A stretch of DNA of 64,000 nt, from positions 1 through 64,000 of the forward strand of contig CDROCS010006366.1 of the NCBI GenBank assembly GCA_977020255.1. Reading direction: 5' to 3'. Shown here in pieces: positions 10,552 to 45,400 of this stretch; positions within the stretch are counted from its first letter, which is position 1; every line of letters begins with the position of its first letter. This stretch comes from Obrimoposthia wandeli (lineage: Eukaryota). The notes beneath the pieces are model-generated. The model saw nothing but the letters and a program-made list of their open reading frames with translations, was not told the DNA's origin and searched no databases. The position numbers and the translations under genes were made by a program.

Positions 10552-10931
10552 ATGGAGTAAGACATATTTTAAATTTATATTTATTAATTTTTATTTAGTT
10601 CAAAACAAGTAAAAGAATCAGCAGAGAGGTCCTGGGTGATAAATTCAATGGAGTTTATCCTATTGATATGATTCCATTTTTTCAATCTGGAGGATACATT
10701 ATCAATACTTATACTTCGAATTTACCAGGAGAACATTGGATAGCTATTTATGTTAGAGAGTGGACAATACATGTATTTGATCCACTTGCAATGTATTATG
10801 CACACAAACTTGTTTCAACTATTCAAAAAGGACGAAGAAGAGTATTTTACAACAAGATACCATATCAGGATCCTGCGACGAGAAACTGTGGACATTTATG
10901 CATTTTATGGTTATCGTTGCAAAACGATTAG
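10552..10931 (+). pseudogene. PRO: Adenain/Ulp1-like maturation protease with intron 10557-10598; 1-nt deletion in exon 2
   Basis: GEHW (His), FDP (Asp), YQD (Gln), NCG (Cys) motifs; ATGGA|GTAAGA...TTTAG|T. Confidence 0.88.
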
Positions 10932-15777: not shown

Positions 15778-16264
15778 TTATCTACATGTCAAGTAATAAT
15801 AAGAAAGACTTAAACATTTTTTATATGCGCAATGGTCACCATGATTACGATATGGACAGCAAATATTTCGTGGAATTTTTAATAGATGATCACGTGAAAT
15901 ATTTAAAGTATTCAACCTCAATTTAGGAAAATATTTTTTTAAAGTCATATATTTTTGCCATCCATGTCATCTAAAACATAAAAATTCCATTTTCAATTTC
16001 AAAATTAAATTTAATAGTATCGAAAATACATATTTCACAAAAAGCCTTATGTCCTTCTTTCCATTTTAATAAATAGAAATATTTAGTTAGATATAAATTA
16101 GTAAATTTTTTCTTATAATCTAAACTTTTAAATGGGATATCTATATGAAATATGAAATGCAAAGGATGAAAAACGTCGCATACATCCATAATACATAATT
16201 CTTTTATAATATAATCCCCATTTTTGTTAATGAAAGCCTCAAAATCTATGATATATTCCTGCAT
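15778..16264 (-). pseudogene. DEDD-like 3'-5' exonuclease-type accessory protein, frameshifted
   Basis: IIDFEAF...KELC (DxE motif I-like). After the frameshift near 15975 it continues CPYRNHGDHCAYK, matching copy-3 CPYNEHGQHCAYK. Confidence 0.6.
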
Positions 16265-16344
16265 AATTATCTAAATTTGTAGCAAATCCCGTTGTTTATA
16301 ACGAAGTACTTTCATGTTAAGATTGGAATATTTTGTCAATTCTC

Positions 16345-16900: not shown

Positions 16901-18385
16901 CTAATGTTTATAAATTATATTTTTAAACATCTTTACGAAGTCATCATTGGGATCATTCGGGTCGTAATCCCTCCGACTAAGTATTATAGGAGAAAGCGGT
17001 ACTGGTTCCTTCTTCTTTGGCCGGCCCGGTTTCTTTTTCGGCTTCACCGGTTGCTTTGTAACAATTGTCCTTCCCTCAGGTTTTGGCAATAGTTGCCGCA
17101 ACTTTTTGGGAGGAGGTGCAGCCGATGTTGATGGTTCCGACGTAGAAGTCCTCTTCCGTGGAGCTTTCTTCTGTTTCTCCTCCTTCTCACGCTGAAGCTG
17201 GCGTGAGACGGCATCCTGTTGCCCACGCGAATCTGAAAGCATTGCCGGTGAATCCAGTTCCGCCAGGAATTCATCCAATCCAGCGTCATCCCAGGCCCTC
17301 TTCAAGTTCTGGCTGGTTGTTGGACGAGGAGAAGCAGTCTCCTGCAGGCGTCGTTGACTTGAGGGCGGACTTATCTCAATCGGCGAGACTGGGATCCTCT
17401 CATATAGGATTGGTCCGTCGTCCACTGGAGATTGGAGAATCTCCTGCTGGCCAATCACTGTCTCAGAATAATGACCAATTGAGGTTTAACATTTTCTCGA
17501 GCGCCTCGTCTTCTTCACCTCTGCCCTCTTCGTCCGTTTCAGCGAGAAAGGAGTAACTTCACCCCAAGTCTCCTCAAATATCTGGACGGGTTCCTGCAAA
17601 ATATTAATAAAATTTAAACATATAAATAATTTACCTCAATGATGGGCAGGTTAGCCTGTTTCACCAACTTGGCCTTCTTCCGCGTGAGGGTTTTGACCCT
17701 ATGGCGTTGCGGTTTCTTAACTGCCGCTTGCTTCCTATCCACCGGTTGAATAGACGTCGCCTCTTCGTGAATGTTCTCCATCTATGTGAATTATTAAATT
17801 AAATATCTAAATAATTTACCTTAAAATTATCTGGAGACGCTAGGTATCGGAGCTGACTCCTTGGCAGCTCCTGGCTGCATTGACTCGCCAAGTACTGCGG
17901 TTCAATTAGCCTCTCCACCATGGTCACTGACGGTGCCAAATCCAGTTGAAGTTTCTGAAAATGAAATTAAAAAACATTTAAAATAAATGATGTCTAACCT
18001 CATTCGTCGGTTTTATTCTCCTAACAGGAGATGTTGGCCTTTTGAATGGTTCAGGCATTGTATTATCTGCTTTCGGAGTAGCAGAGGGAGTGAGACCATC
18101 CCAATCGTCGGTGAACAGGTGCCACTCGTCCTCGTCCAATTCTGCTACCATCGACTCGTTGGCTTCAGGGGCTCCGATACTTGGCTGTATCCATTCGTCG
18201 ATGAATGGAGTCAAGTCCTCCTGGTGTGGTGCGGTGTGGTGTGGTGTGGCGTGGTGTAGTGTGGTGTGGCGTGGTGTGGTGTGGTGTGGCGTGGTGTAGT
18301 GTGGTGTGGCGTGGTGTGGCGTGGTGTGGCGTGGTGTGGTGTGGTGTGGTGTGGTGTTGTGTGGTGTGGTGTGAGAGCGAGACAT
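16901..18385 (-). CDS. 4-exon disordered regulator-like protein (acidic patches, basic NLS-like stretches, AT-hook-like KPGRPKK); one in-frame TAA at 17488
   Basis: Phase-0 introns 17998-17955, 17819-17782 and 17634-17594. Internal exons of 135 and 147 nt are stop-free and join the 185-aa ORF frame. Start codon uncertain. Confidence 0.65.
18223..18372. repeat. (GTGTG)n pentanucleotide microsatellite, about 30 units
   Basis: Directly visible; it explains the VVWCG and HTTPH repeat ORFs. Confidence 0.95.
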
Positions 18386-18670
18386 CCGTACATCGCCAAG
18401 CTAGTCTGTGACCTATATGAGATCGAGATATCCGTACATCGCCAAGCTAGTCTGTGACCTATATGAGATCGAGATATCCGTACATCGCCAAGCTAGTCTG
18501 TGACCTATATGAGAACGAGATATCTGTACATCGCCAAGCTAGTCTGTGACCTATATGAGAACGAGATATCCGTACATCGCCAAGCTAGTCTGTGACCTAT
18601 ATGAGAGCGAGATATCCGTACATCGCCAAGCTAATCTGTGACCTATATGAGAACGAGATATCCGTACATC
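18373..18670. repeat. 46-bp tandem array (about 6.5 units) in the right terminal repeat
   Basis: Units start at 18373, 18419, 18465, 18511, 18557, 18603 and 18649; reverse complement of the left array. Confidence 0.95.
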
Positions 18671-18882
18671 TGTGACCAATGTCGGACCCGAGCCCTTCGC
18701 GCCGAAAGGCGCGAAAAATTGTTAGGAGGGGGTACCCCCCCCTTGTCTTTTAAAACCGTGCATGTGTGTGGAGTGAAATTTCACTCCACACACCTACACG
18801 AAATTTCACTCCACACACATACACGGTTTTAAAGGACAGGGGGGGAGGGGTGTGTGGATTAGACCGGTCACATCCACCTACT
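18671..18882. repeat. Outer right terminal repeat with hairpins and 25-bp repeats
   Basis: TTCGCGCC-GAAA-GGCGCGAA (18696-18715); perfect 30-bp palindrome at 18764-18793; terminus ACT at 18880-18882. Confidence 0.85.
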
Positions 18883-23946: not shown

Positions 23947-26333
23947 GGCCATTTCATGTGAGGAAGTGATGTCACGTAACTGACCTCCGCAATTCTGTTC
24001 AGAATTTGTTCATAATTCCTGGTAGAGTTGTAATATTACTTAATTTAAGGTTCCTAACTTCAAAATACGCATTTTCAACCGTCATGGTGATGTTCAAATA
24101 TATAACGTCATTAGGTATAAAGCCTCACAATAATAGTTCAAATAGGCCTTTTGTCAATATTTATCCAGGATATAATCAAGTACGACTCATTGTTTGGAAA
24201 CCCTCATTGGCTGCTATTTTAGATATAACGTAGTTAGTTTTCTTAGAATTAACAGCCACGAAGATGTTAGAAAATACGGATCAAACGATTTGGAATAAAG
24301 GATCATCATCAAAAAGTAAGTTCCTCTATCTTGACGCTTATTTTAAAATTATAAGATATATTTATTTTTATTAGCAGAACATTTATTAATCACATTTGAT
24401 TCCAACTACATCTGCCCAATGAATGAAAGCCTTGCGGGCAAGAAAAATGAAGAGTGATCCTTACTTCAAGAAAAAAGATAGTGAGAGAATTAGTGCACTT
24501 CTAAAAGCAAAGCGATCTTCGATGACACCCATGGATATAGTTGAAAAACTGAGAAGAGAGCGAGAGTACAAGGCCAAGTCACGGCGAAGAGCCAAAGAAA
24601 ATAAAAATAGCAGATCCCATGGTTTCCAAATGCCACAAAGCTTCGGTAAAGCAAATAAGCGTTTACAGGACATCCTTCCAAGATCACCATTGAAGCGAAA
24701 GGGACTAGCGGAATCTGTGGGTATCAGTATTGCTAATAGAATGGATAAAGAATTAACTCAATGTGGCTAAAGGGAGGTGAGTGATGTTATTGCTAATAGA
24801 ATAGATAAAGAATTAACTCAATGTGGCCAAAGGGAGGTGAGTGATGTTATTGCTAATAGAATGGATAAAGAATTAACTCAATGTGGCCAAAGTGAGGGGA
24901 GTGATGTTATTGCTAATAGAATAGATAAAGAATTAACTCAATGTGGCCAAAGTGAGGTGAGTGATGTTATTGCTAATAGAATGGATAAAGAATTAACTCA
25001 ATGTGGCTAAAGGGAGGTGAGTGATGTTATTGCTAATAGAATAGATAAAGAATTAACTCAATGTGGCTAAAGGGAGGTGAGTGATGTTATTGCTAATATA
25101 ATGGATAAAGAATTAACTCAATGTGGCCAAAGGGAGGGGAGTGATGTTATTGCTAATAGAATGGATAAAGAATTAACTCAATGTGGCCAAAGGGAGGTGA
25201 GTGATGTTATTGCTAATAGAATGGATAAAGAATTAACTCAATGTGGCCAAAGTGAGGTGAGTGATGTTATTGCTAATAGAATGGATAAAGAATTAACTCA
25301 ATGTGGCCAAAGTGAGGGGAGTGATGTTATTGCTAATAGAATGGATAAAGAATTAACTCAATGTGGCTAAAGGGAGGGGAGTGATGTTATTGCTAGTTTT
25401 TACATTAGAGAATACATTTCGTACACAGCTCCTGGAATGCGCGATGAGATGACGGTGTGAAAGAGAAAATATTACTTGTTGATGTATCTAAAGGAAGTTT
25501 TGTCATTTTCAAACTTAAGCATCCATCTTTTGCGATAGGTTCCAGTACATTCGCATCTTTAAGACCCAAAAATGTGTATATTTTGCGAGATAGTCCTTCT
25601 GATCAATGTAAGTGTGCAGTGCATGAGAACGTTTTGATGAAACTTATCTTGGACTCAAATATGATAATCAAATTTGGATTGAGTTGTCCGATTTGAATGG
25701 TCCTTGTTGGAAAGAAGATTGTCATCAATGTGTGTCAGGTACAAAGTTCATTAGCATGAGAGAGAACAATGATAAGGAAAAATATGTAACTTGGAAGGAA
25801 TGGGCCAAAGACTGTAGCGGTTGGTGATCTGTCAAAATAAGAGAGGGATACGGTGGAGAGTTAGAGGAGGAAGTTGTCGGATCGTTTGATCAATTCAGAG
25901 AACACGTTAGGGTTCAGAGAATACAAAGTGATTATTTCCCAGTACTGAAAGGAGATAAACGAGGAAGCATGCTGCAAGTTGATTTTGCAATGGGTCATGT
26001 TTGGGAATTTCAAAACGAATTTCAAAGTGCCCTTTGGTCTCGACAGTGCGTCAATCTGTTTACTGCATCATATACCCAAAGAGGCGTGTTTAACAAATCA
26101 TTTTGTTTCCTACACGGTCTTGGCTTGTTTGAGAAAGTTTTTGGCCCAATTAACATAAGTGAAATCGGCCAGTGTTTTACAATATTTTCTGATGGACCAA
26201 GTTCTGAGTTTAAAAACAATTTTTGCGTAAAAATGCCTCACATTTTGAAGCATCAAATCAATCTCACATGTGATATTCAGTGGTCTTGCTCAGCCACATC
26301 ACGTGGCAAGGGTGTAGTTGACAGGATCGGCGG
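23947..26333 (+). mobile_element. Decayed DNA transposon, 5' part (Sola2-like, superfamily tentative)
   Basis: Fragments PQSFGKA..LPRSPLKRK, FASLRPK, LQVDFA...QSALW, FSDGPSSEFKN, ATSRGKGVVDRIGG; subterminal GTCACGTAACTGAC at 23971. Confidence 0.7.
24728..25395 (+). repeat. 60-bp tandem array (11 units) inside the transposase coding region
   Basis: The unit encodes IANRMDKELTQCGQREVSDV; four units carry TAA instead of CAA. Confidence 0.95.
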
Positions 26334-26387
26334 TGGACTCTAGTTAGAATTCACGATGTTAGCTTTGATCTAACAAAGTTCACTGAC

Positions 26388-29330
26388 ATGATATATCTTT
26401 CGGGGAGTTCATACATTCCTTCACCTAGATCTCTTCAACTTTCACGTTCCATTGTTAACATACAAAACAGTGATAACCTTTGGTTTCTGTATAGCGTGTT
26501 GGCCATCCTCAAAAGGGATGTAATTACTGAGCATAGAGAGCGTGTCAGTAAATATGCCCCTTTTATAAATGAATTGCAGTATCATGGAATAGATTTTCCT
26601 GTTAAATTAACTGCGATATCAAGATTTGAACATCTTAATAACTTGAGTATTAATGTATTCAAATATAATACTGACATCCCAGTTAATGTAACAGATGAAG
26701 AAATTTTTAAAAATCCTTTTGTAGATGTAATTTATAGGAGCAAAAATGAGGGGACTCAGGTCAACTTCATTTTGCTCGAACAGAATAATAAATTCCATTA
26801 TGCTGCAATTCCCTGTTTAGATCGTCTTCTCAATTTAGATAATGGAGCCTTACCGGTTAGGATAAGGTGTAAGTGGTGTCATATATGTTTGCATGGGTTC
26901 CGATCCGAGCTCTCTTACAGCAAACATCTGACATTATGTTCACTGAATCCTGATGACAATACGCTATATAGCATGCCTAAGGATAAGGATTTAAAATTCA
27001 GGGATTGGGCAAAATGCATACCCGTGGAATTCAGGGTGTATGCAGATTTTGAGTCAATTTTAGCATTGCACGACCAGTATGAGAGTATTCACCTACCGGC
27101 TTCAGCAGGACTACTATTCTTAGGCCCCAATATTACCCAGTATCATAAATTTTCCGATTCAAATTGTATTTTAGATTTTATGTTAAAATTAGAGGAATTA
27201 GGAACAACAATTGTCAAACCGTGGTATGATCTCAATGCTCATCAAGCAATGATCATGACAGGCATAGACTGGGTTAATTTTAATTCTTGTAGATTATGTT
27301 ATTTGTGTGGAACCCAGTCTAAGTTAGTCAGAGATCACGATCATGTTACGGGGCGATACTTGGGAGCGGCGTGCAACCTTTGTAATCTTGGCCGTCGTCT
27401 CCCTAAAAAACCACGCATTCCCATCGTGTTTCATAACCTCAAAGGATATGATTTGCATCATAAACTTAAATACGCGTTGGGTACATTAAGCTCTTGGGAA
27501 ATTTCATGTATACCTCAAACTTCAGAGAAATATTTATCTTTAACTGCATATACTGAATTCTGCAGTTTAAGATTCATAGATTCTCTGCAGTTTTTGAGCG
27601 GGTCTTTAAAAAATTTAACGGCATCTTTAAATGCATGGCCAATTACACAGTCAGTGTTTCCAGCTTCGGTTAACGATAAGGGGATATTTCCGTATAAATT
27701 TGCGAAAACTTTCGCAGATTTAGAAAATACAACTGAAATCCCACCCATAACTGAATTTGAGGGTGTAAGTCTTCAAGACTATAATGAGGCCCGTACATTT
27801 TGGGTGAATAATTGTCAAAATCTTCTCGAATATATGCTTTATTATATGAAGTTAGACATTTATCTTTTAGCTGATGTTTTTGAGTCCTTTCGTGTAAAGT
27901 CTTTAGCAGAAGATGGGCTAGATCCCATGCATTTCTTTAGTTTACCTGGTCTTTCATGGGCAACAGCAATAAAAACTCTTAAAATTAATATCGAGTTACT
28001 GCAAGATCCCGCGATGTATCAAATGTATGATTATGGTATACGCGGTGGAATGACTTTTGTCAACAAACATCATGTTGTCAAAAATCAATCCACGGAGATT
28101 CTGTACATCGATATTAATAATTTGTATGGGTGGGCGCTTACTCAACCTCTACCTCATGCCAACTTTAAGTGGGTTTATGATGTGGATCAGTTGAATAAGT
28201 TGATGACAGATTTGGCTACTGTTGATACAGTTTCATCCGACGTCGGCTATTTGGTTGAGGTGGACATAAAAATCCCTCCCAATGTGCATGATAAATTAGA
28301 TGATCTTCCAGTAGCGCCTGTTCATCAATGCCCACCTAATTCAAAGGTTAAGAAATTATTGTTAACCCGTGAAGACAAGTTGAATTATGTTATGCATTGG
28401 CGGCTTCTTCAATTCTACTTAAAGTTGGGAGCGAAAGTTACTCGAATTCATCGTGCTATAAGTTTCAGTCAAAACTTTGTGTTTAAAGACTATATGGAGA
28501 AGAATTCAAGAAAACGTAATTTGGCCACTAGCAAATTCGATCGAGATTTTTACAAGTTAAAAAGTAATAGTATCCTTGGAAAAACTGTAGAGGACTTGCG
28601 GAAACGTATTTGTCTACGGTTTTGCAATGATGAGCGTAAACTAATAACATATACTAGCAAGTACAACTTCAATCGTAGTTTTACAATTGCAGATGACTTG
28701 GTAGCAGTGTTATTAGGAAAACAGAGTATTTGTCTCGATCGACCGAGTTATATAGGTCAAACGGTTTTAGACATTTCTAAACTCAGAATGTATGAGCTTC
28801 AATACATAGAATTGGAGAAATACCGACAAGAATTTAATTGTGAGATTAAAATCGCAGCTGGGGACACTGACTCTTTCTTTTTAGAATGTAGGAATGTTAG
28901 TTTAAATAATCAATTATTACCAGCAATGTTTAGGGACAACTTACTAGATACCCATAAATATCCCGCTAACCATCCTCTACACTCTATGAGTTTAAAGGAC
29001 ATTATCGGGAAATTTAAGGATGAAAGCGAGGGACAGGTTTCGTATGATGATTGTAATTTCCTACGCCCGAAATGCTACAGTTTACATGCATATAATAATA
29101 CATGTTCAATGAGAGCAAAGGGTGTGAGAAGAAACAATCTTACACATGAGGCCTACCGGAAAGTTTATGATACTGGGTGTATTGAAAGCGTTGAGCAAAC
29201 TAGATTTATTTCAAGAGCCCATCAACTGTATTCCCATAAATCAACCAAAATCGCGTTGAGTAGTAATGACGACAAGCGCTTTTGGGTAGAAAAGAACGCT
29301 AGCCTGGCTTATGGACACTTCAAAATTTAA
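26388..29330 (+). CDS. pPolB: Protein-primed DNA polymerase B, 980-aa open frame, 5'-truncated
   Basis: All exo and pol motifs are present in one frame (motif B reads NSILGK versus NSLFGK in copy 1). Homology begins at 26334; the native promoter and N-terminus are lost. Confidence 0.92.
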   Translation: MIYLSGSSYIPSPRSLQLSRSIVNIQNSDNLWFLYSVLAILKRDVITEHRERVSKYAPFINELQYHGIDFPVKLTAISRFEHLNNLSINVFKYNTDIPVNVTDEEIFKNPFVDVIYRSKNEGTQVNFILLEQNNKFHYAAIPCLDRLLNLDNGALPVRIRCKWCHICLHGFRSELSYSKHLTLCSLNPDDNTLYSMPKDKDLKFRDWAKCIPVEFRVYADFESILALHDQYESIHLPASAGLLFLGPNITQYHKFSDSNCILDFMLKLEELGTTIVKPWYDLNAHQAMIMTGIDWVNFNSCRLCYLCGTQSKLVRDHDHVTGRYLGAACNLCNLGRRLPKKPRIPIVFHNLKGYDLHHKLKYALGTLSSWEISCIPQTSEKYLSLTAYTEFCSLRFIDSLQFLSGSLKNLTASLNAWPITQSVFPASVNDKGIFPYKFAKTFADLENTTEIPPITEFEGVSLQDYNEARTFWVNNCQNLLEYMLYYMKLDIYLLADVFESFRVKSLAEDGLDPMHFFSLPGLSWATAIKTLKINIELLQDPAMYQMYDYGIRGGMTFVNKHHVVKNQSTEILYIDINNLYGWALTQPLPHANFKWVYDVDQLNKLMTDLATVDTVSSDVGYLVEVDIKIPPNVHDKLDDLPVAPVHQCPPNSKVKKLLLTREDKLNYVMHWRLLQFYLKLGAKVTRIHRAISFSQNFVFKDYMEKNSRKRNLATSKFDRDFYKLKSNSILGKTVEDLRKRICLRFCNDERKLITYTSKYNFNRSFTIADDLVAVLLGKQSICLDRPSYIGQTVLDISKLRMYELQYIELEKYRQEFNCEIKIAAGDTDSFFLECRNVSLNNQLLPAMFRDNLLDTHKYPANHPLHSMSLKDIIGKFKDESEGQVSYDDCNFLRPKCYSLHAYNNTCSMRAKGVRRNNLTHEAYRKVYDTGCIESVEQTRFISRAHQLYSHKSTKIALSSNDDKRFWVEKNASLAYGHFKI

Positions 29331-29589
29331 ACGGTTTCCATTTTTTGATTTTTTTAGTTTAGTTTTTTAAAATTTTAGATCCTTATGGCACCTAGACTCT
29401 AACTTATTTGTTATTTCAATACTTTTTTAGGATGGACCTTATTTATTATGCCTTATCTTTGCTGACATATATCATTGTGATGTTGTGATTAATAAATGTA
29501 TTAAAAAAAATTGTCTTATGTCTTTTATTATTTTACCCTTAAATTTTTAGAGATTTAAAAGATAATTCAAAATAAAACATTTAAAATTT

Positions 29590-29985
29590 TTATTTTTTAA
29601 CACACTTATCGTTTTGCAACGATAACCATAAAATACATAAATGTCCACAGTTTCTCGTCGCAGGATCCTGATATTGTATCTTGTTGTAAAATACTCTTCT
29701 TCGTCCTTTTTGAATAGTTGAAACAAGTTTGTGTGGATAATACATTGCAAGTGGATCAAATACATGTATTGTCCACTCTCTAACATAAATAGCTATCCAA
29801 TGTTCTCCTGGTAAATTCGAAGTATAAGTATTGATAATGTAACCTCCAGATTGAAAAAATGGAATCATATCAATAGGATAAACTCCATTGAATTTATCAC
29901 CCAGGACCTTCTCTGCTGATTCTTTTACTTGTTTTGAACTAAATAAAAATTAATAAATATAAATTTAAAATATGACTTACTCCAT
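29590..29985 (-). CDS. PRO: Maturation protease, 117 aa, two exons (29985-29981, 29938-29590)
   Basis: ATGGA|GTAAGT...TTTAG|T yields MDSKQVKESAEKVLGDKFNGVYPIDMIP...GEHW...FDP...YQD...NCG; 354 nt in frame. Confidence 0.9.
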
Positions 29986-29986
29986 T

Positions 29987-31217
29987 CTATAATATGACAG
30001 TTCTGTTTTTATTGATTTGTATTTCCGAATCAAATACTCCGTAAATAAGCACCGTAGTAGGATTTGTTAAAGTTGCATTGAACTTAATTTCTAGTCGTAA
30101 ATTTCCATCCTTTGGTAGTTGGCATTGGTTTATATCAAAGTCTGGTGCCAAAACAAATGTGAAGAACGGGCAGCTGATTTTAAAGTCAGTGAAAGAAATA
30201 CTATTGTTTATATTTTTATCTAGTTGACCCAAATTTCGAATAATAGATAGGGTATAAGCCAAAGCATAAGCGTTACCTTCGAAATCTGTTTTATATGTTT
30301 CACGATAATCAGTATTTCTTGAAAGTGTCACTGAACCAACATTAAGATTGTCAAATTGAGTTGCATCTGTCGTATAATTTCCTAGAAACTTTACAGTTTT
30401 TTGAAAAGAAATTAAAATGAATTTCGGTAATCTTACATCACCAAAAATTTGATCCTTATTAAAAGCTTGTGTACCCGTACCTAAAGAATAAGATATAAGT
30501 TTAGTTTCTCTAATATGATAACAAGCATTGTTTTTTTCCATTCCTATATTATGTGCCATTAAAACTGATTGCTCGGTTTTAACTCTTCGAACATACAATT
30601 TTGCATCCAAAATATCAAGTCTAGGTTTTTTGAACGTCTGTGCTTATCAAAGAAAAATTCCATTTATTACGTTTCAAACGAAGATGTACATTAACACTGG
30701 GAATTAAATATTTCGGTTGTTCAAAGAAATTCAATCTCAAAGACCCACACATTTCGTAAGCTTTAGAACCTGCAATCCATTCTTTGCGAGTTGAATCAGT
30801 TTTATCATAACCAATGGTTGCCAAATTAGTATTTTGAGTATCAGTACTATAATTCAAAAGACTTTCAATCAAAGCTTTATGAGCATAGGAAGAATTTCCA
30901 CCTTCAATTTTGACATTATTAAGAGTAACAATGGCATCATTAAATAAAGAATTAAATAGATAATTTACAGGTGTTACATCGGCATTTTCATCTAAATTAG
31001 TACCATCCCGATTTAATAATTTTATTTGAACATAAATCAAAGTATCATTCAAATCTAAATACTCGCTATTGGAACCAATTATATTAAATTCTAAATCGGT
31101 TAAAGTGGTTCCTGAAACTGAGTTAACAAGGAATATTTCTTCAAAGGAAGCATTATCTACAACTACTTGTGGAAGCGGTTTATCAAAAATACATAATTCA
31201 GTTTTGGCGCAACTCAT
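29987..31217 (-). pseudogene. MCP: Major capsid protein, single frameshift near 30625
   Basis: Two ORF halves (198 and 207 aa) are colinear with copy 1. Confidence 0.85.
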
Positions 31218-31591
31218 TTTGCAAATATTGTTCCTTCAACTTTCTTACGTTTGTTTATATTAATTTTTAGCTTCTTTTTACTTTTAAATCCACTACCTCC
31301 TTGGCTTTTATTTGATTTACGTTTTCTAATCAAATTAGCAACTTCAGGTAAAACATTATCAAGTTCATCAAGCGCATGCTTCTTAAAAGTTGGTATTGGT
31401 TTATTGTCATTAGATGAAAGGTAATCCTTTCCTAATTTTGATATAAATCGCCCGAGTCTCTTTAAAAGAGGATAGGCAAATCTACCTAATGTTCTAAGCC
31501 AGCAAGATCCGTATTGTTTACCAACAAAATATGGTAATTCTCCACCTTGTTGGCTTTGACTATAAGCTTCAATTATTGCTGGATTCACCAT
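31214..31591 (-). CDS. 125-aa small basic protein with QxGG/QxGS motifs and an amphipathic helix
   Basis: QQGGELPYFVGKQYGS-WLRTLGRFAYPLLKRLGRFISKLGK; basic C-terminus; overlaps the mCP stop and MCP start. Confidence 0.8.
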   Translation of the reverse strand: MVNPAIIEAYSQSQQGGELPYFVGKQYGSCWLRTLGRFAYPLLKRLGRFISKLGKDYLSSNDNKPIPTFKKHALDELDNVLPEVANLIRKRKSNKSQGGSGFKSKKKLKININKRKKVEGTIFAK

Positions 31592-32626
31592 TTTGTTTTC
31601 TTAAATGTATTGTTAAACTTGTCTTGGCCTCGTACGTCAAATCTATTAGTTGTCCGGAATCATATCTAATATTTACTTCGATATTGCTTATAGAAAAGAG
31701 AGAAACTGGAAGATACATTGGTTGATCTATACACATACCGACAGTGTCCTCATCTCTAGTTTCATTTTTAGATATCCATATTGTTCTCAAAAGTGGAACT
31801 CGCTGTCCTCCTACAAGCAATGGTTCTATTAAAATAGTATAAATATATAAATGATTAACAACATTTAAAAGTTTTGCCTTATTTTTAGCTTTTATGGTTT
31901 TTATTGTATGGGTTTCAAAGGTATTTCTGTTTAAACCAAGGTTTTTAGCGAGTTTATCATCAAATGAAACTCGTTTTATATTGCTCTTTACTGTAAACGT
32001 TAATTTACCATTTAATGTTTCACATTTATCCAAATATTCACTACATTCCTTCTGTATTAATTTACACAAATTCACTTCACTATCTATTTTATAATCTTTT
32101 GAAAACGTTTTCAGTTCCACTACAGTCTTTGTTCTCGTTTCAAGTAACAACACTTTTGCTACTCTACCAGGAACATTTCTAACCGCATTAGATGAGATAA
32201 TATCCCGTTTATTACGAGCTACTGTTTGTTCACTATCAAAACTGAATTGAAGAGCTTCTTTTTTAGATTAAAATTAATTTTAATAACTTAAAGAAATTTT
32301 AATCGATTTTTAAATCTGACTTTGTTATTTTCAAATATTACTTTCACTTCTTTATCTATACAATTGTAATAGAATTGTCCTTTACTATCAAACCCGATCA
32401 CAACTTCAGTTGTTTTTTCATGATCAACTTCTTTTGTAAACGAAATATGTGAGTTTTTTTTGATAGTAATTGGAGAATAATAAAAAGAAAATTCTGTTAA
32501 AGCCGCTTCCCATTCTCCTTGGAGATTTATAGAATTTTCCCAATCGATAATAAAGCTACTAGCGTCATTATCTGATTGAGTCTTCGGACATCCGTTACTT
32601 GGTAAAACCATATACATAGAATTCAT
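31569..32626 (-). pseudogene. mCP: Minor capsid protein, nonsense plus 1-nt deletion near 32270-32290
   Basis: Colinear with copy 1; CAA>TAA at 32290. Confidence 0.85.
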
Positions 32627-33651
32627 ATTATATTAGATGCTGATATCCAAGTTGGGTCTGAATAACCATGCCATTTAACAAAGTATTGTTTATGTTTACC
32701 TGTACCCTTAGATTTTAATATTTTTTGAATACGGAAAACGCTAGGTTTATTTGATATTACTTGTAGTTCTTGCTCGTAAAATTTACCGTGAACGATATTA
32801 TTGTCAGCATCTTTAATAGTATACATTATTGGATTACTCTTTTGATCAAATTTACTTATACAAAATATTTCATCGCTCCAATTCTGATCAAAGTTTTTAA
32901 TAAATGGAGTAGAGCTAATTTTCGAAATTCGAACATATTCGTTTTTCTTATATTTAGCTTTTTTAATTTTATCTTTTTTATTCTTGTTCATCCAAATGTC
33001 CATAGAGTTTTTATTAGTAACATCAACAGGTCTCATTCCCTTGAGACCTCTATGTTCAGAGTGATTATATGCATGTATTATTTTAGGTAAAACTTGGATC
33101 CATTTTTTATTTCCTTCTTTTGTGAAATACTTTTTTATTCGATCTCTTAGAGTACGATTAAATCTTTCTACTACTGCTGCTTTGTATTGTGAAAACACAG
33201 AGTAATGATTTATATTATTTTGTTTAAATAATGATTTAACTTGCTTATTATAAAATTCTTTTCCTAAATCTGTTTGCACATTTTGTGGAATGTCCTCTTT
33301 TAATATTTCTTTAATGGCTTCAATCATAGCTATTGAAGACTTTGCTTTAACTGGAATTGCACGAGCAAACCTGCTAAATACATCAATACATGTTAAAATA
33401 TATCGATATCCCTTATTAATGGAAGAATATGGAATCATCTCCATCAAATCCATTTGCCATAAATTATTAGGACCGCTGGTTTTGTAAACTCTAGTTGGAA
33501 ACCTTCTTCTCATCGGCTTGTTCAGACTGTAGGCTAACTGGTCGCTCAGCCATTTCTGTGTTTTCTTGTAATTTTGTTTTGTTCTTTTTGTTAATTTTGA
33601 AACTCCTGTGTAGCCAATTGGATCTTTTGGATTGAACCATATCTTCTCCAT
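32623..33651 (-). CDS. INT: Intact RVE integrase with chromodomain (likely start MEKIWF at 33651)
   Basis: DDE motifs and chromodomain in one frame. The copy-3 homologue also starts at the equivalent Met. Confidence 0.93.
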   Translation of the reverse strand: MEKIWFNPKDPIGYTGVSKLTKRTKQNYKKTQKWLSDQLAYSLNKPMRRRFPTRVYKTSGPNNLWQMDLMEMIPYSSINKGYRYILTCIDVFSRFARAIPVKAKSSIAMIEAIKEILKEDIPQNVQTDLGKEFYNKQVKSLFKQNNINHYSVFSQYKAAVVERFNRTLRDRIKKYFTKEGNKKWIQVLPKIIHAYNHSEHRGLKGMRPVDVTNKNSMDIWMNKNKKDKIKKAKYKKNEYVRISKISSTPFIKNFDQNWSDEIFCISKFDQKSNPIMYTIKDADNNIVHGKFYEQELQVISNKPSVFRIQKILKSKGTGKHKQYFVKWHGYSDPTWISASNII

Positions 33652-33709
33652 TACAACAATTTGAATAGAAAGAAAATTTAAGTTTAGGTAAAGAAGGGCT
33701 AGCACCCAT
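33491..33709 (-). CDS. 72-aa putative acylated peptide overlapping the integrase start
   Basis: Intact homologue of 6386-6604. Confidence 0.55.
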   Translation of the reverse strand: MGASPSLPKLKFSFYSNCCNGEDMVQSKRSNWLHRSFKINKKNKTKLQENTEMAERPVSLQSEQADEKKVSN

Positions 33710-33737
33710 ATCTTTAGCTGATTTTAGAAATAATTGT

Positions 33738-35230: not shown

Positions 35231-35730
35231 TTATAGAAAAGATAACATGATATAATAAGATATATTTTCTAAAATCAAATCAACTATGTCTGGATAATCA
35301 AAATTTTTCAATCCCAATATCATAACTTTACCACTGGAAAATATATTTACACATAGCGGTTTAAACTTCAAATAACTGAGAGCAGGAAAAATTTCTGATT
35401 CAAACATGCATTCTTCTTTCATTTTCTCTGCAGTTTTAAAAAGATTTATCTGTTTCCCGAGATTAGCCGAAATCGTGATTGATTGTATTGCAGTGATTTG
35501 AATTCCAAATGGTAAATTGAACCCAAGCATTGGTATTTTGCATCCCATAACACGACAATTTCCTAAAGAATTCAATATGAAAATAAAATAAAAAACTAAC
35601 CTGTAGGAAAAATAACAACTGTGAAATTGTGAAACTTTTCTACATATTGTCTCGGCTTCCATTCATTGAATGGTAAGTACGAAACATCATCTTCTGTTCT
35701 ACCTTTATAATTTATATTTACGAGTTTCAT
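35231..35730 (-). CDS. Intact TBP-like protein, 153 aa, two exons (35730-35601, 35562-35231)
   Basis: 38-nt GT-AG intron; 130+332=462 nt in frame. MKLVNINY...TVVIFPTGNCRVMGCK...IQSITISANLGKQINL...FESEIFPALSY...VNIFSSGKVMILGLK aligns to both TBP repeats. Confidence 0.88.
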
Positions 35731-35979
35731 TAGACTGAAATTGTATTCTGTAAAATCTTCTTTATATATGTCTGAACCTGCTTTTTTATTGCACGTTTCT
35801 TGTAATTATCTTGCAAACCTATTATAATTGGATGATATATTTCTTCCAATCAATTTTGATTTTTAATATAGATTTAGTCCAATCAAATTCAATGCTTTAG
35901 TTATATTAACCAATGAGATTCATGTCTTTGTTAGAAATTAGTATAAAAGAATGCGCCATTGGAGGACAAATCACAGTAA

Positions 35980-36456
35980 ATGCATTCATATCAAAGACAA
36001 TTATCAACAATGGATGATAGCCAACGGGTATTAAGCGATGACGAAGAAATGTTTGAAGAATCGGATAAGGATATGTATGAAGAAGTGAAACAATATTTCA
36101 AATACAAAGTCAGATTCTTGAAGAAGGCTCAACTGATTGCTTTAGTAAATCCTGTGACAATTGAAAGAAGAAAGTTCAGCTACTATCTATCAGGTATTCA
36201 AAAACCTGATTTTCAATATCTGAAACAGAAAATAGAAAAGGCAGTTCCGAATTTTACTTTCAATAAGAACGAATTTTATATCCGAGGAGCTGATGAAGCA
36301 TTTCTAGATGACTATGGAAGATATGTTGATATTGATGCGTTTCCGAAAAAGAAGCAATGGACTGTAACAATTCGACTTTATGGTTACAAGAAAGATGAAA
36401 TGGGAACAAAGTTGCCTATGTGGAAAATTGAATGTGCTCATATTTCTATATTTTAA
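35980..36456 (+). CDS. Orphan ORF-B, 158 aa (paralogue of ORF-A)
   Basis: Intact; TATAAAAG about 38 nt upstream. Confidence 0.8.
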   Translation: MHSYQRQLSTMDDSQRVLSDDEEMFEESDKDMYEEVKQYFKYKVRFLKKAQLIALVNPVTIERRKFSYYLSGIQKPDFQYLKQKIEKAVPNFTFNKNEFYIRGADEAFLDDYGRYVDIDAFPKKKQWTVTIRLYGYKKDEMGTKLPMWKIECAHISIF

Positions 36457-36589
36457 CTTTTGTGTGTAATAAATTGTAATCGGTTTTACTATGTTTCTTT
36501 CATTTAATAATCAGTTTTATTTGTATATTATTTGAATCTTATGTGTATTTTTTATAAACATTGTTTTTAATCAGTTTCCTTATTTTAGA

Positions 36590-36994
36590 ATGGATAAGAG
36601 ATGTGTAGCAAATTTTTATTATTCAGAAATAATTTCAAAAGGAAAACTATATAATATATTAAAGAGGCATCAAATTATACGAATTATGAATCCTGTGAAA
36701 ATATCAAAAGTGGAGAAAAAATATCTCATCGAAATTTTAACAACAACTGATTTTGATGAACTGAAAAATATTTTGCGATTTTACATTCCTGATTATGTAT
36801 ATGATGGAAATTGTTTCGAGCTTGAAACTGATCCCAGTCTGGATTTTAAAGATGATCTAGGATATTTGATTGCTCCAATTCTAGATGAAGAACTATGGAA
36901 TATCTCAATACGTCTGAATGGATATTTTGCTGATGACGGGAAAATGCAGCCTCTCTGGACTTTGAGTGAAGCCAATATGTTGTTTTATGTTTAA
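36590..36994 (+). CDS. Orphan ORF-A, 134 aa (paralogue of ORF-B)
   Basis: Intact; TATAAACA at 36553. Confidence 0.8.
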   Translation: MDKRCVANFYYSEIISKGKLYNILKRHQIIRIMNPVKISKVEKKYLIEILTTTDFDELKNILRFYIPDYVYDGNCFELETDPSLDFKDDLGYLIAPILDEELWNISIRLNGYFADDGKMQPLWTLSEANMLFYV

Positions 36995-38280: not shown

Positions 38281-40944
38281 GAAAACAGTTTCAAATAACT
38301 GTCTGATATTTCGATAATGCGTTTTTTTTCGTAGAAAGTTAAACTACAATATGTTCATTCTAGAGTCATTGGCCGAAGCCTTCTAAAAGACTTGGTTTGA
38401 AAGTTACGTTTTTCGTATCAGTTGAAGCCTATGCAAGTTCATCATAAATACAAATATTAAATTATGTAACTATATACTTAATTTTGCGTATCATAGACTA
38501 ACATGAATTTGTAATTCATTTAAAATTCAATCAGAACCTAAGATTATGAACATTTTCCTTCATATATAAAGTATAGTTTCGATCTAAATATTGATTTAAT
38601 TTTTTTTTGGAAAAATTGATTCTCTGAATGGAATGGTTTTACGCGATTCTTATTGAAAACTATTTTAAACAGTCAGCCTTTTTACAGCCATTTGACTTAG
38701 TTTCCACTACTCTGAGTTTTATCAGTGGTAGAATTTCTGGTCACCTACTCTTTTAACTTTACTTTTCTATAGGTTATATATTTTTAAAGTAGTTAGAGAT
38801 GTGGTGCTTTCATCATCATGCATTATTGAATGAATTATTCTACAAATGTGCATGTTTGAATATTCGAGTGCGGCAGTCGAAATAGAAAGTTGAATAAGCG
38901 TTTGTCTTGTTCTCTACATTGGGGCCTGACAGCGAAGTTTACTTCGGCTAACCTCCACGTCCTTGATGGATAAGAGACTGCGAGCTACATCCAAGGAGCT
39001 GCAGCATCAGCAAGAAAACAGGTCGACTCAGACTATCTGACAGTTGACCCGATCTGCCTAATCAAACTGGTCGACTCGCTGACCACGACCTGATCAGGCA
39101 GCTCAAAGTCGACTCGTATGTTAGGTAGTTCTTATGATGATCGCTGATGATGTTGTTGGTGAACAACAACATGACAACCGTTGATTATATGCTTGGCTGT
39201 CTCTAAATAGCCACCCATCCAGTTCTGAGACACTATCCACTCCGAGGAGCTGCAACAATAACCCACACAAGTTTTGCCAATATTTCTTCCATTTTGGCAA
39301 ATACTTTAAAACAATGAATAAAATTGAATAATTTGCTTCTCTTTAAATTTGTTTAAAATATTAAATTGAGTGATATTTGTAGGATATCGAATTGATACAA
39401 GTAAAATAAATTCGTGAAGCACTTATATGTTGATGAAAATGCAACAAAATCAGTTTCCCCAACAAGCTAGTGAAATTTTTACAATTATCATAATTTTTCT
39501 TCCTTTCATTTTTATTGTATTTTTATCTCTCTGAATCTCTGATGAAATTCTTGGAACAAAACAATTGCACGAATACTTTCTTCTCGATAACGATAAAATT
39601 CTCTTTGAACATTGGGATTAAATTTTATTTTTTACTTTCCAAATCCCAATTTCTTTGGAAATATTCGCCACTGCAGATAAGCCCAGAAGCATATCACATG
39701 ATCTGCATTTTCAGTTCGTTTTCCATATCAGCTTTTGAAAGTTTAATTGAAAACTTTTCATCTCGATAACTTGTAAATAGCATGACGACGCTACAACGCA
39801 GCGGCCCAACAAATTTGTCGGGTTCTCGTTGGTAGTTATTTTTAGATTCATGGACTGTAAGACTTTTAGACATTTTAAATAAATAATAAAATGGATAGTT
39901 ATAGGTATTTTTCTCTTTAATTTAGGAGGGTTGAAAATAAATTTATTTCAAAGAAGTCGAGATCAGGCGGGAAAATACTCTTAGATGCATATTTACAAAT
40001 ATCAGATCAAAAGCAAGTCTTAGACCAAAATTGACTAGTACAAATGAAACAACGGATAATTTGTCAGAAAATCATTGAAAAATAGTACCATTTGAAGGGA
40101 GGAAGAGAGTTTTGAAATAGAGTTTCAGATGGTTACTTTAAATAGTCCATTTTTAATTATTTGGAATTCGAAATTTGCACAGAAAACATAGCATACATGT
40201 TAATACGATAAATAATTAATGTAACCGTGTTTCTTTGTTGAAACGGAGAAACCAAAAACAAACGGCAAGACTTCTTGAAAAGAGAGATCCAAAAACCAAA
40301 CAGCGTATTATTAATTTTAAAATCAAATTGCTGAATCAAATAGTAATTGGGAAAGTTTACTAAATAATAGTCTTTTAATTTGTCAGATAATTGGGGAAAG
40401 TGATAATCCCAAAAATATAATATACCACCAAAATCTGCAAACAATGCAGTTAAATAGTCTGCATTCCGATCGATCCCAACAACCAGGGAGATGTCGACAC
40501 AGCCCACAGCGACCGTCGGTATGATGTGAGGAAGCATGGAGATTTTCAACCGTACTGTTGTTGAAGGAGTGGTACATCAGCTGGTAGACCGCGGGTACGA
40601 AGAGGCCTGGAGAGAGGAGCGGGCTTTGGCAGGTGCAGGGATGTCAGAGCGGCTGGATAAGCGGTAGTCAGTACAGAAAAATTAAAATGCCAAAGTGCAT
40701 TCGTCAATCATTCGATTGCAGCTGTCCAGAAGAATAACTGCACACACACACCTGCATAGAAACAGACTATATAAGTCTCAAATCAAACGTGCAACAAGAC
40801 AGCACACAACCCCCAAAAAAGAGAAGAATCCATATTGCACCAGGAGAAGAAATAGACGAGACGAATCAAAGGTAAGAGGAGAAAAAAACATCGTCACCAA
40901 GTTAACACAATACGCGCAGGTCTTGCAGCTCAATCTCATAAGTT

Positions 40945-41585
40945 GCCCGCTGCTCAATTCACAGTTGCAGCCAAGCTCTCGAATTCGCCGCTGCTCAATC
41001 CACAGTTGCAGCCAAGCTCTCGAATTCGCCGCTGCTCAATCCACAGTTGCAGCCAAGCTCTCGAATTCGCCGCTGCTCAATTCACAGTCGCAGCCAAGCT
41101 CTCGAATTCGCCGCTGCTCAATCCACAGTTGCAGCCAAGCTCTCGAATTCGCCGCTGCTCAATTCACAGTTGCAGCCAAGCTCTCAACTTTGCCGCTGCT
41201 CAATTCACAGTTGCAGCCAAGCTCTCGAATTCGCCGCTGCTCAATCCACAGTTGCAGCCAAGCTCTCGAATTCGCCGCTGCTCAATCCACAGTTGCAGCC
41301 AAGCTCTCGAATTCGCCGCTGCTCAATTCACAGTTGCAGCCAAGCTCTCAACTTCGCCGCTGCTCAATCCACAGTTGCAGCCAAGCTCTCGAATTCGCCG
41401 CTGCTCAATTCACAGTTGCAGCCAAGCTCTCGAATTCGCCGCTGCTCAATCCACAGTTGCAGCCAAGCTCTCGAATTCGCCGCTGCTCAATTCACAGTCG
41501 CAGCCAAGCTCTCGAATTCGCCGCTGCTCAATTCACAGTTGCAGCCCAAGCTCTCAAATTCGCCGTTGTTCAATTCCACGGTTGC
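40945..41585. repeat. 41-bp GC-rich minisatellite, about 15 units
   Basis: ACAGTTGCAGCCAAGCTCTCGAATTCGCCGCTGCTCAATYC, period 41. Confidence 0.95.
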
Positions 41586-41701
41586 TGTCCAGTAGTTCTT
41601 TCCGCCTCACCAGTTCAGGAGATTAAGCAGGAAGGAGGATTCATAAACCAGTAAAAAAATTAAAGGTATAATTACCCACGAATTTGACTAGTGTAAGTGG
41701 A

Positions 41702-42445
41702 GTTGTGAATTATAAATCGAAGGAAATTTTGTAAACAAATATTTGATATTTTTTGAGTTATAAATCGGAGGAAATTTTGTAAACAAATATTTGATATTTT
41801 GTGAGTTATAAATCAAAGGAAATTTTGTAAACAAATATTTGATATTTTGAATTGTGAGTTATAAATCGAAGGAAATTTTGTAAACAAATATTTGATATTT
41901 TTTGAGTTATAAATCGAAGGAAATTTTGTAAACAAATATTTGATATTTTGAATTGTGAGTTATAAATCGAAGGAAATTTTGTAAACAAATATTTGATATT
42001 TTTTGAGTTATAAATCGGAGGAAATTTTGTAAACAAATATTTGATATTTTGTGAGTTATAAATCAAAGGAAATTTTGTAAACAAATATTTGATATTTTGA
42101 ATTGTGAGTTATAAATCGAGGGAAATTTTGTAAACAAATATTTGATATTTTGTGAGTTATAAATCAAAGGAAATTTTGTAAACAAATATTTGATATTTTG
42201 AATTGTGAGTTATAAATCAAAGGAAATTTTGTAAACAAATATTTGATATTTTGAATTGTGAGTTATAAATCGAAGGAAATTTTGTAAACAAATATTTGAT
42301 ATTTTAAATTGTGAGTTATAAATCGAAAGAAATTTTGTAAACAAATAATTGATATTTGGAATTTTGAGTTGCAAATCGAAAGAAATTTTGTAACATTTGA
42401 TATTTTGAATTGTGAATTATAAATCGAAAAGAAACTTTGAATTAT
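41702..42445. repeat. AT-rich minisatellite of mixed 48- and 53-bp units, about 15 units
   Basis: TATAAATC anchors at 41711, 41759, 41807, 41860, 41908, 41961, 42009, 42057, 42110, 42158, 42211, 42264, 42317. Confidence 0.95.
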
Positions 42446-45400
42446 AAAATAATCTGTTTTATCAAAAAGATCTAAACTACCCATAATTTTGAACGACCAG
42501 CTATAAATTCGTTCCCTATATTAGAGCAACCAGCTCTTCAAAATCTGTGCCCTGAGTTTATTCACAAGTTAGAGTAAAGACTCAAATAAGCTAACCGACC
42601 TTAACGTAAAATCGATACGTGGTTCATCCCCACTTGTGTAGAGACTTACAGAAGTCTTAGGAATTTTTACTGTAACTTTTTAGAGAATACGTACGTAAAC
42701 GTATTGTTGTGTTAAATCTAGTGTGTTAACAATAAACGATTTCCTACATTAGAAAGCATTGTTTTAAACCCTTCAGATTAAGAGACATCAAAACAAACAC
42801 CTTCAGATAAGCATTTGAGACAGGCAACCATAACATTAAGTAGGCCACGACCATTTTTAAGACCTGCTTCTATTCGAACTCACGTTGGGGCCCTCCGCAC
42901 ACAAGAGGATCTATACAAGTTTCGTATAGAAACCCCAACATATTTGAAGAGTTTATTTCCAGGCTTTATCCCGAAGAAGGCTTCATAAATATATCTGCCA
43001 ATTCTTGAATAGGGGGTGGAGTAATTTGCCTCTGCATAATGCAAAATTCGTCAGACGTCGTTGTTGACAGCGATTGTAAGTAGCGAGCTTTGTTGTGAAC
43101 TAATCAACCCTCGGTCCAAATCTCTGAAACCTCTTGGACAATTTTAATCTCCAATTCACCATCACGATAAGCTTGTAAGACACAAAGCGGTTCTTTTGGA
43201 TTTTAGACAGAATATTCCCAACTCAAGGCCGCGAAATCAGGTATCAAAGTTGATGAAATACTTATTAGAACTTGAAAGTTTTGCAGAATATATCAGATGT
43301 GTAGTTGATTCAACACTCTTACCATGGATGCACAAATAGAGAAAACAGTAAAGACTGAATGAACTAAGAATTGCTTTTAAATACTCCAAAATGTTGCTCA
43401 AAAACGCTGCTCATTACAAAAATGTGAAGTATTACTAATAAACGAGAGATCTTGGTAGGCTTAATACAAAGCTGTATAGCACACTGTTGAAATAATTTCG
43501 TGAAATTAAAATATACGAAACTTCTTGGTGCACGTTAAATCACTTTTTAGCAAGTGTTATCAGTGACTTGATAAATTATAAGAAGATGGCTTGCTCGAGT
43601 AACAGTGTGTGCAGATGTTAGATTTATGCTTATTTACTGACTATCGATTCTATTATTTCATATCACTTAAATAAAAGAATCGGACTTTTTATAAACTAAG
43701 CTTGATGGTTTTCTCATGTTCAATACCAAAGACTGGTAAACGTATATTCCACTGGAGGAAGAACATCAGATTGCAGTACTGGCTATTTCTGTGTGGTCGG
43801 TATCCGGGGTACCCAGTGGGTCTGTATCTGCGTACACTGCTTCCCCACACGATAGCAAGATGATCTGCCGCGATAGAGACTGCAAGTCCGGATGTGACTG
43901 TTTATCCGCTCATCTGAACCTCGCTGACCCTCACGCCCATTTCCGGCCCCATCTTCCACTGTCCCCGCACACTGCCATTTCCACCACTGCCAGGGAGAGA
44001 GGCCATCGGGCATCTCCCCAGATCCTTGGCAGTAGGTAGATATCTCGGTCTAGACATATCCACAAGCGACTTCCTGGCTAACAAACCTGGTTGAATCACT
44101 TGCTGCTCCCTGACACATGATTTCCATTCCCCTACACTGGACAACGGGTTTGATTGAAATTTAAATTGTCATTTTGCACAATTATTTATTAATATTATTA
44201 TCGTATTAACATAAAATATTAGATACTTAAATTTTGACCGTACTTAATATGACAAACTTTATCCCATTGTTGTTTTGTATTAGTAAGTTCTTTTATTAAG
44301 TATTTCTAATTTTGATATTTCTCTATATTATTTCTAATAATTATTTGTTTTACTACATAAAATCCGCGCAATAATTGTAAACATATTTATTCTAAATGAC
44401 AAAGACGCCTAAATAAATAAGTAAGATAAGATAAGTAAATGTTGATCAAAGTAACATTTTGCACCCGAACAAAGGATTACAATAAAACATTTGCACTTAC
44501 TAACACTGTAAATCTAAAGAGATATTCTCTTTAAAGTACGGAATGAACATATTTTGACCTATAATATATTTAGTTTTCCTAATTATTATCCGGGTTCAAC
44601 GACTGAGTTAGATTCCATTTGTCTTATTCGGAGCCGTCGGTGGCGCATGGATATCTGTGTTCCTCCACCGCTCCAAAAATTATCGTTATGTTGAGTCTTT
44701 TTACAAAGCTTAAAAGTCTACTTCGTAATTCTGGGCAATTGCGATTTCTGATTTTGCAGTCCTGCTATCTTCTTCTTTACATTCTTCCAAATGTATTCCT
44801 GTAACCGTTGTCGCTCTCGAGTTGAGCAGAGCCAATAGACGCAACGATTGTGTTTTGAATATAGACGAATCGCCAACTGCTAAAACAATCACCCAAAGAC
44901 AAAGTTTAAATAATTTATTTACATAGCTTATTATATATGAAGGTCTCGCCAATCGCATTAGAGTGATGCGACCGACAAGGTTATCATACAAGACATAGAG
45001 AAAATTAGGACTTCCCAATCGAATTTTACCATGCTCCAGAGATAAACAGTCGAAGGGGTATGCTGGAGTGAGTCGTGAGGTCTCCAAACGACTCAAATAT
45101 CTATGAAATCTATTTAAAATCATTTTCTTGATCGACCTTCTTGACCCCACTCGGTTCTGGCTCGGGACTATTCGGTACCGACTGGATTGTGGCGCTTAGA
45201 GAATAAAATCTGTGTTGTGGTCGTTGCTCCATGTCGCGGGGATGTCCGGGGTTTCTTCGTCCTGGCTCGATTTCTCATCGAAGAGGTACACCCCTGGACT
45301 CGTGATCTCTCCTGGCTCCAGATCTACTGAACTCCCAGACTGAATGGGAACGGGAAAACTAATAAATTGTGGTTGAAAATATAAATGAAAGCAAGTGATA

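Follow-up and report, generated by a model that had tools for sequence, protein, structure and literature searches.

A predicted intron inside codon 2 of the adenain-like protease gene is conserved across one clade of Polinton-type elements

Introduction

A 64,000-nucleotide stretch of Obrimoposthia wandeli DNA, referred to here as the window, carries three Polinton-type elements in which the ATG of the putative maturation protease gene (PRO) stands apart from the rest of its reading frame. Is the DNA in between an intron, how old and how widely shared is it, and does its removal control protease output? From the sequences compared here, the feature appears to be real, older and wider than first seen, and limited to one clade, whereas the case for a regulatory role is weaker.

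In the literature consulted, the core genes of nematode Mavericks are described as intronless, with introns in cargo genes (10.1101/2022.07.12.499685), the core genes of virophage EMALEs are intronless as well (PMC8547959), and Polinton surveys take intronless core genes as a working assumption (PMC10120064; PMC9356565). Two further sources describe introners in Polinton-type elements of dinoflagellates (PMC12166617) and report group I introns (PMC12220804). The literature listings and texts consulted, which also took in PMC8502044, PMC11296320, 10.1101/2023.08.22.554363 and 10.64898/2026.10.13.758929, contained no report of an intron at the PRO start.

Results

Three Polinton-type elements in the window

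Each of the three elements has breaks. Copy 1 (about 2.2-18.9 kb) and the inverted copy 2 (about 26.3-37.4 kb) belong to one family and are about 98% identical (94-100% over most matched blocks), whereas copy 3, which extends from about 56.8 kb to the window end, represents a second family with about 70% DNA identity to the first where the two can be aligned and 48% identity in the protease. Copy 2 encodes an rve integrase with a chromodomain (Pfam rve E 1.6e-12), an A32-like ATPase (Pfam Pox_A32 E 2.8e-6), a TBP-like gene also recognized by Pfam, and a PolB-like ORF of 1002 codons in which PolB motifs were recognized by eye; a Pfam match to PolB was weak and seen in copy 3 only. The combination of type B DNA polymerase, rve integrase and packaging ATPase that marks Polintons/Mavericks is present. 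Copies 1 and 2 share a 112-nt terminus (90% identical), placed at opposite ends of the two elements, and no copy has two intact ends.

Several further features of the elements were recorded. PolB runs in the same direction as PRO in copy 3 and converges on PRO in copies 1 and 2, and the PolB-like ORF at 26322-29330 (+) contains an endonuclease VII-like insert (Pfam E 8e-5). An ORF of copy 3 (63513-63998, -) is dual-specificity phosphatase-like (Pfam DSPc E 8e-6) and is not found in the annotated part of copy 2, while near the left end of copy 2 (35980-36994, +) there are two neighbouring paralogous ORFs, about 29% identical and without a Pfam match. One ORF is common to both families (15971-16270, -, and 59735-60268, -; 32% identical) and starts with a DFE motif, which we take to resemble that of DEDD exonucleases. 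Tandem arrays occupy 24608-25507, 40808-41669, 41652-42450, 2389-3100 and 18326-18693, with units of 60, 41, 48/53 and 46 nt; copy 1 carries the 46-nt array inside each of its two ends, and assembly gaps (N 2571-2849, 2859-2990) fall within the left one.

A putative intron separates the PRO start codon from its frame

In copy 1 (+ strand), PRO coding exon 1 occupies 10552-10556, 1 nt past the stop codon of the major capsid protein (MCP) gene at 10548-10550, and is followed by a 42-nt phase 2 intron (10557-10598) with a GTAAGA donor and a TAG acceptor, then by exon 2 (10599-10931), which has a frameshift near 10627. Copy 2 (- strand) has the same layout: exon 1 at 29981-29985 consists of the ATG plus 2 nt, the intron at 29939-29980 (42 nt, phase 2, GTAAGT...TAG) is 10% GC with TTAAT at -15, and exon 2 at 29590-29938 has 115 open codons, the adenain fold and the His/Asp/Cys residues. 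In copy 3 (- strand), an exon 1 of ATG plus 2 nt (60659-60663) precedes a 39-nt phase 2 intron (60620-60658, GTAAGT...TAG, TTAAT at -16) and an exon 2 (60283-60619) that is 48% identical to that of copy 2 and carries a premature stop at 60339-60337. Exon 2 is open in copy 2 only, and no window copy is fully intact.

The first-pass annotation had described this structure, and its coordinates, its lengths of 42, 42 and 39 nt, its three donors, the phase after ATG plus 2 nt and the single nucleotide between MCP stop and ATG in copies 1 and 2 all proved correct. Its count of three copies holds for the structure but overstates independence: because copies 1 and 2 are near-identical, there are two independent cases, not three. 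The intron interiors had been called unrelated between families; they are indeed alike only weakly (2.9% of shuffles score as high), but they have TTAAT at -15/-16 in common. This motif occurs at -14 to -19 in six of the seven introns checked and is common in AT-rich DNA.

In every copy, the first AG found 20 nt or more past the donor is the proposed acceptor, and using it yields the protease frame; the distance from acceptor to a conserved Phe is 16 residues in both families. The sequence ATGNNGTAAG occurs three times in the window on both strands, once per PRO gene, where 1.3 occurrences would be expected anywhere; none of 30 simulated windows contained it together with an acceptor and 60 open codons. 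With a donor near GTRAGT, a YAG acceptor, and frame and N-terminal length restored on removal, the segment has the features expected of a U2-type spliceosomal intron, and we regard it as a putative one. The PRO exon ends lack the consensus -1 G.

The protein encoded by PRO

Exon 2 of copy 2 was modelled with a mean pLDDT of 94, giving a helix (residues 2-15), a strand (16-21) and then the catalytic core. Its best structural match in Foldseek is the adenovirus proteinase 1nln (E 1.4e-6, TM 0.76), and the family profile aligns with adenain 1avp from position 4 (E 2.1e-7). The catalytic His is invariant and Asp is present in at least 90% of 27 rows, as is Cys in at least 90% of 11 close rows. Catalytic residues and modelled fold identify the product as a likely adenain-like (C5) cysteine protease; as single sequences, the protease and capsid ORFs of copy 2 went unrecognized in a direct Pfam search. 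The predicted gene structure and fold can be read from the sequence itself.

Exon 2 of copy 2 has no in-frame Met before residue 24, so that a start on unspliced RNA is predicted to lose the first helix and strand of the fold; copy 3 has no Met before its premature stop. If the intron stayed in, translation from the PRO ATG would stop after Met and one further residue (most relatives would instead shift frame), and initiation at the next in-frame Met would give a protease without those two elements. The host spliceosome would thus have to remove the intron for the full enzyme to be made. We hold with high confidence, from the sequence comparisons, that the intron is spliced and required.

Relatives carry a probable trace of the same intron

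If such an intron is general, ORF-called homologues should often be mis-started, as the first-pass annotation supposed for Polinton proteases. The homologue set comprised 260 ORF-called proteins, of which one of 1415 aa was dropped, leaving 259. The start lies 16-27 residues before a conserved Gly, and is in that sense normal, in 202 of these; 25 are extended without such a Met, 19 are truncated, 8 are extended with such a Met and 5 are unanchored. Starts 18 and 19 residues before the Gly are commonest (69 and 49 of the 259), with residue 2 there mostly Asn, Tyr or Asp. The spliced start of the window genes lies 19 residues before this Gly, bearing out the claim that splicing restores a typical N-terminus.

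The 25 extended proteins fall into 13 with at least 44% identity to copy 2 and 12 distant ones. All 13 close proteins have Ser at the acceptor position (11 of them) or close by, as an in-frame reading of AG|T would give, and F/I/L/Y/N make up 81% of their leaders versus 34% in the other 12. Where the leader is long enough to span the intron, eight of eight proteins are compatible with ATG-NN|GTA[AT] 35-47 nt upstream of the acceptor in one of three frames, against 0.45 of 8 expected from shuffles and 0 of the 12 distant proteins; these figures come from back-translated proteins and express compatibility, not the DNA sequence, and sight of the sequences preceded the choice of pattern, of a 30-60-nt search range and of the 44% cut-off, but the margin is wide. 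The eight are 44-72% identical to one another. Their implied intron lengths (37, 47, 38, 35, 38, 40, 42 and 41 nt in P0004, P0005, P0143, P0153, P0156, P0164, P0173 and P0196) spread over all three frames, as expected of removed DNA, and one of them, P0173, implies an open 42-nt in-frame intron. Scans of genome contigs returned 11 pattern matches with the protease alignment and 27 with the MCP alignment, no true relative among them, and a scan of the phage collection gave no match.

A tree was built from the protease core only (98 rows, 101 columns), its rows being proteins that scored 80 bits or more against copy 2, together with Ser-leader rows labelled by hand; P0143 was left out as too short. 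One 30-row clade (UFBoot 100, SH-aLRT 92; bootstrap not fully settled, at 0.967) contains both window families and all Ser-leader proteins in the tree. By a label-free rule, a Met 17-22 residues before the Gly occurs in 5 of 28 proteins in the clade versus 64 of 68 outside it (Fisher p 1.5e-13), and Ser occupies the acceptor position in 14 of 19 (P0143 counted) versus 6 of 64 (p 1.1e-7), both tests taking related proteins as independent. The other members of the clade are truncated or begin with a leader that resembles an intron and ends in Ser (AG|T). P0014 and P0017, two members of the clade, seem to have no intron, and P0017 is flagged as a long branch; they are intron losses or misplacements.

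The contrast between clade and outside, in normal starts and in Ser leaders alike, points to an intron that is ancestral to one Polinton clade rather than general and that appears to be absent from most relatives examined. The proposed conservation across families is seen in both window families, and the pattern extends to relatives beyond the window. As to mis-started proteases, the supposition is right for one clade, where 23 of 28 database proteins are affected, but not for Polintons at large, given the 202 normal homologues.

The same evidence bears on the alternative that no intron exists, AT-rich DNA mimicking one while translation starts downstream or at a non-AUG codon, or that separate introns were gained in each host after insertion. 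AT-rich sequence and decayed copies would suit mimicry, and introners invade such elements in dinoflagellates (PMC12166617), but position and phase are identical in two families at 48% identity, the signature of donor, ATG and acceptor recurs in the diverged long-leader relatives, and a downstream start would delete elements of the modelled fold. We consider this alternative very improbable. From the aligned proteins and the window DNA, we are highly confident that splicing is real and that the intron is conserved across the clade. The intron would have been gained once, in the ancestor of that clade, and preserved as protease identity fell to about 50%.

PRO comes last in a gap-free capsid block

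In copy 2 the order is integrase, minor capsid, core-like protein, MCP and PRO, with PRO last and no spacers; the first three fill 31214-33723 (-), the upstream part of a gap-free block, and MCP lies at 29987-31217 (-), with a frameshift near 30630 and its stop codon at 29989-29987. The MCP and minor capsid labels are putative, drawn from gene order, size and 75 unnamed homologues, with no named match among them. A single nucleotide separates the MCP stop from the PRO ATG, and the exon junction follows that stop by 6 nt. In copy 3 an MCP remnant (60692-60787, -), its N-terminus joined in frame to its C-terminus by a large deletion, has its stop (60694-60692) 28 nt before the PRO ATG; this 28-nt gap contains a short ATG-started frame ending on a TGA that overlaps the PRO ATG. 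Stops and starts overlap as ATGA between integrase and minor capsid (copies 2 and 3) and between core-like protein and MCP (copy 2), the minor capsid and core-like genes overlap, and MCP and PRO are arranged as stop, 1 nt, ATG (copy 2), so overlap or adjacency is found at four of four junctions of the copy 2 block.

Since stops and starts are packed in this way throughout the block, we favour termination-reinitiation: ribosomes would terminate at the capsid stop and reinitiate at low frequency on PRO, the last cistron, giving the low ratio needed of a maturation enzyme. This is our preferred route to the PRO ATG on a capsid message, held at a little under even confidence. The exon junction falls 6 or 33 nt past the capsid stop. 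Junctions trigger decay of a message when they lie beyond a limit of 50-55 nt after the stop. With the junction below that limit, the capsid message could be spliced without being destroyed, and the short distance may explain why an intron is tolerated only at this position. Against coupling, the stop and the ATG are 1 nt apart in one family but 28 nt apart in the other, where the copy is decayed, and tight packing of genes also occurs uncoupled in compact genomes.

An AATAAA overlaps the PRO stop of copy 2 (29589-29594, -), a candidate poly(A) signal of the block, and copy 3 has one at its PRO stop too, a weak sign given 16 AATAAA in this AT-rich 5.6 kb. Another AATAAA (30008-30013, -), within the final codons of MCP and some 20 nt ahead of its stop, precedes the U-rich intron and could be an MCP-only poly(A) site competing with the splice, though such hexamers are frequent in this DNA. 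Scans for AATAAA and TATA-like motifs gave no informative signal in such AT-rich DNA.

The main rival to reinitiation is that PRO has its own mRNA, made from a promoter within the MCP 3' end or by splicing of a cis or trans leader just before the ATG, the intron then being an ordinary start-proximal one that aids export or expression. Adomavirus late genes have alternative acceptors a short way upstream of intact ATGs (10.1101/341131), the MCP stop TAG of copies 1 and 2 could itself serve as an acceptor 1 nt before the ATG, and the gene upstream of PolB likewise has an intron after three codons. But one pattern tried on the sense strand of the copy 2 block found no strong T-rich acceptor, copy 3 has no AG directly before the ATG, and there is no intergenic room for a promoter, though coding DNA could hold one. 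We judge an own mRNA unlikely, if worth keeping in mind.

A fusion of capsid and protease ('Hexain'), by frameshifting or by splicing from a donor inside MCP, has a precedent in the potential Hexon-Adenain fusions by -1 frameshift proposed for adintoviruses in section 16 of a preprint (10.1101/2024.03.25.586562). In copy 2, by contrast, the MCP and PRO frames do not overlap and the PRO frame stops about 35 nt past the MCP stop, while the last 260 nt of MCP contain three donor-like sites, all weak and none in phase 2. Among MCP relatives, searched up to 2000 aa, all 75 consist of one ORF of 392-426 aa, share a fixed C-terminus and show no fusion. A fusion is scarcely credible here. MCP C-termini running into the PRO ATG are not seen among these relatives, and a genomic MCP-PRO fusion is rejected on the non-overlapping frames and the absence of fused proteins among the 75.

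Intron candidates are not confined to PRO

Besides the one in PRO, element 1 contains seven short, AT-rich candidates for GT-AG introns: the TBP-like gene has one, and the right-end gene and the gene upstream of PolB have three each. The TBP-like gene (35231-35800, -, and about 4290-4854, +; Pfam TBP E 8e-11) has a 38-nt internal candidate at 35600-35563 / 4491-4528. In copy 1 the gene upstream of PolB (14485-15577, -) has introns at 15568-15522, 14995-14921 and 14833-14790, the first after three codons; its four exons are stop-free in the frames implied by their consistent phases, an instance of intron use elsewhere in the family. One exon upstream of PolB is zinc-finger-like and matches a segment of copy 3 near 59400-59510 (41% over 39 aa); a protein atlas search with this exon gave leads under 0.9 only. 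The PolB frame is conserved from codon 36 while its first Met is codon 154, and PolB may take its start from spliced upstream exons.

The right-end gene of copy 1 (16901-18200, -) encodes an acidic, Pro/Lys-rich product and has phase-0 introns of 38-44 nt at 17998-17955, 17819-17782 and 17634-17594; its largest ORF had no match in a Pfam search. A second split start at 17998-17955 was considered and rejected, since the preceding ATG is out of the gene's frame and the intron is internal. Among the repeats displayed, at a length of at least 30 nt, the introns form no introner family, and those listed differ in sequence. Many similar copies at unrelated sites, as expected of introners, are therefore not seen, though old introners would have decayed.

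Regulated retention of the PRO intron in the capsid transcript would keep the protease off until late or fix a low ratio. Retention breaks the frame in all three window copies and in seven of the eight long-leader relatives, the PRO intron is the sole candidate in the ATPase-to-PRO block, where the MCP relatives are single ORFs throughout, and the missing -1 G at exon ends could weaken the donor. Yet any phase-2 GTAA donor creates an in-frame TAA as a by-product, the splice sites come close to consensus with no conserved interior motif beyond TTAAT, P0173 implies an intron that is open and in frame, and the seven other candidates make splicing routine in element 1. We regard regulated retention as improbable, and the earlier proposal that splicing gates protease output is not sustained on these same four counts. 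Instead, removal of the intron is probably efficient and constitutive rather than a regulated switch.

Discussion

The locus is best read as an obligatory, probably constitutive intron in the gene that ends a gap-free capsid block. It would be a short spliceosomal intron of the U2 type, inside codon 2 of a putative adenain-like maturation protease. Taken together, a codon-2 intron gained once, removed constitutively and followed by a protease reached through reinitiation is the overall explanation that we find fairly probable.

The elements resemble known Polintons/Mavericks (adintoviruses, Eupolintoviridae) in their PolB, integrase and ATPase genes and in the position of PRO after MCP; the putative capsid genes and the candidate terminal repeat would fit as well. 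They differ in that core genes are described there as intronless, whereas here a core virion gene has a predicted clade-wide intron; the putative PRO intron and a PolB frame without an early Met both depart from the intronless-core-gene description. Spliceosomal introns within Polinton-type elements are in themselves familiar from intron-bearing cargo genes and introners in Mavericks and PLVs, but those belong to host-derived cargo or are mobile, and the present one occupies a single, fixed, old position in a hallmark viral gene.

The tiny first exon has parallels elsewhere. Adenovirus E2B pTP and Pol and the parvovirus MVM VP1 take their start codons from a tiny upstream exon. In these cases and in AAV, as here, a splice decides whether an ATG joins its reading frame, but they use alternative sites or distant exons, as in the A1/A2 acceptor choice of AAV (PMC12298888), whereas PRO has a single intron of roughly 40 nt and no alternative was found.

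The likeness to adenovirus late processing, suggested by the first-pass annotation, is loose. The L3 unit (pVI-hexon-23K) has the same order of core protein, major capsid and protease, the same protease fold and recourse to host splicing. However, L3 mRNAs arise from alternative 3' splice sites (PMC7851563), and in adenovirus and adomavirus such sites choose the gene, whereas the present intron lies inside the coding sequence, in codon 2, with no leader or alternative acceptor evident. Alternative acceptors before intact starts, the adenovirus-type late arrangement, were not found by an acceptor scan of the copy 2 block that used one pattern.

The literature consulted held no report of a clade-wide intron in the core virion protease gene; introns in Polinton cargo genes and introners are known from the sources cited. 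Surveys presume that Polinton virion genes have no introns. In practical terms, about four in five of the clade's database proteases have a wrong start, with consequences for telling intact from decayed elements and for any attempt at expressing the enzyme. For classification the intron offers a shared derived character, the implied intron lengths of 35-47 nt hint at hosts, and junction reads would be a cheap marker of element activity.

A more speculative, and on balance doubtful, reading is that the clade runs a nuclear, spliceosome-dependent late programme in which the mini-intron and stop-start coupling together set the timing or ratio of the protease. If true, this would be the first handle on Polinton virion gene expression, and an independent answer to a problem for which adenoviruses use alternative acceptors. 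The persistence of so old an intron in a hallmark virion gene implies that accurate splicing, and with it an active protease, has been selected for; such selection would support a real nuclear, particle-forming cycle in this clade.
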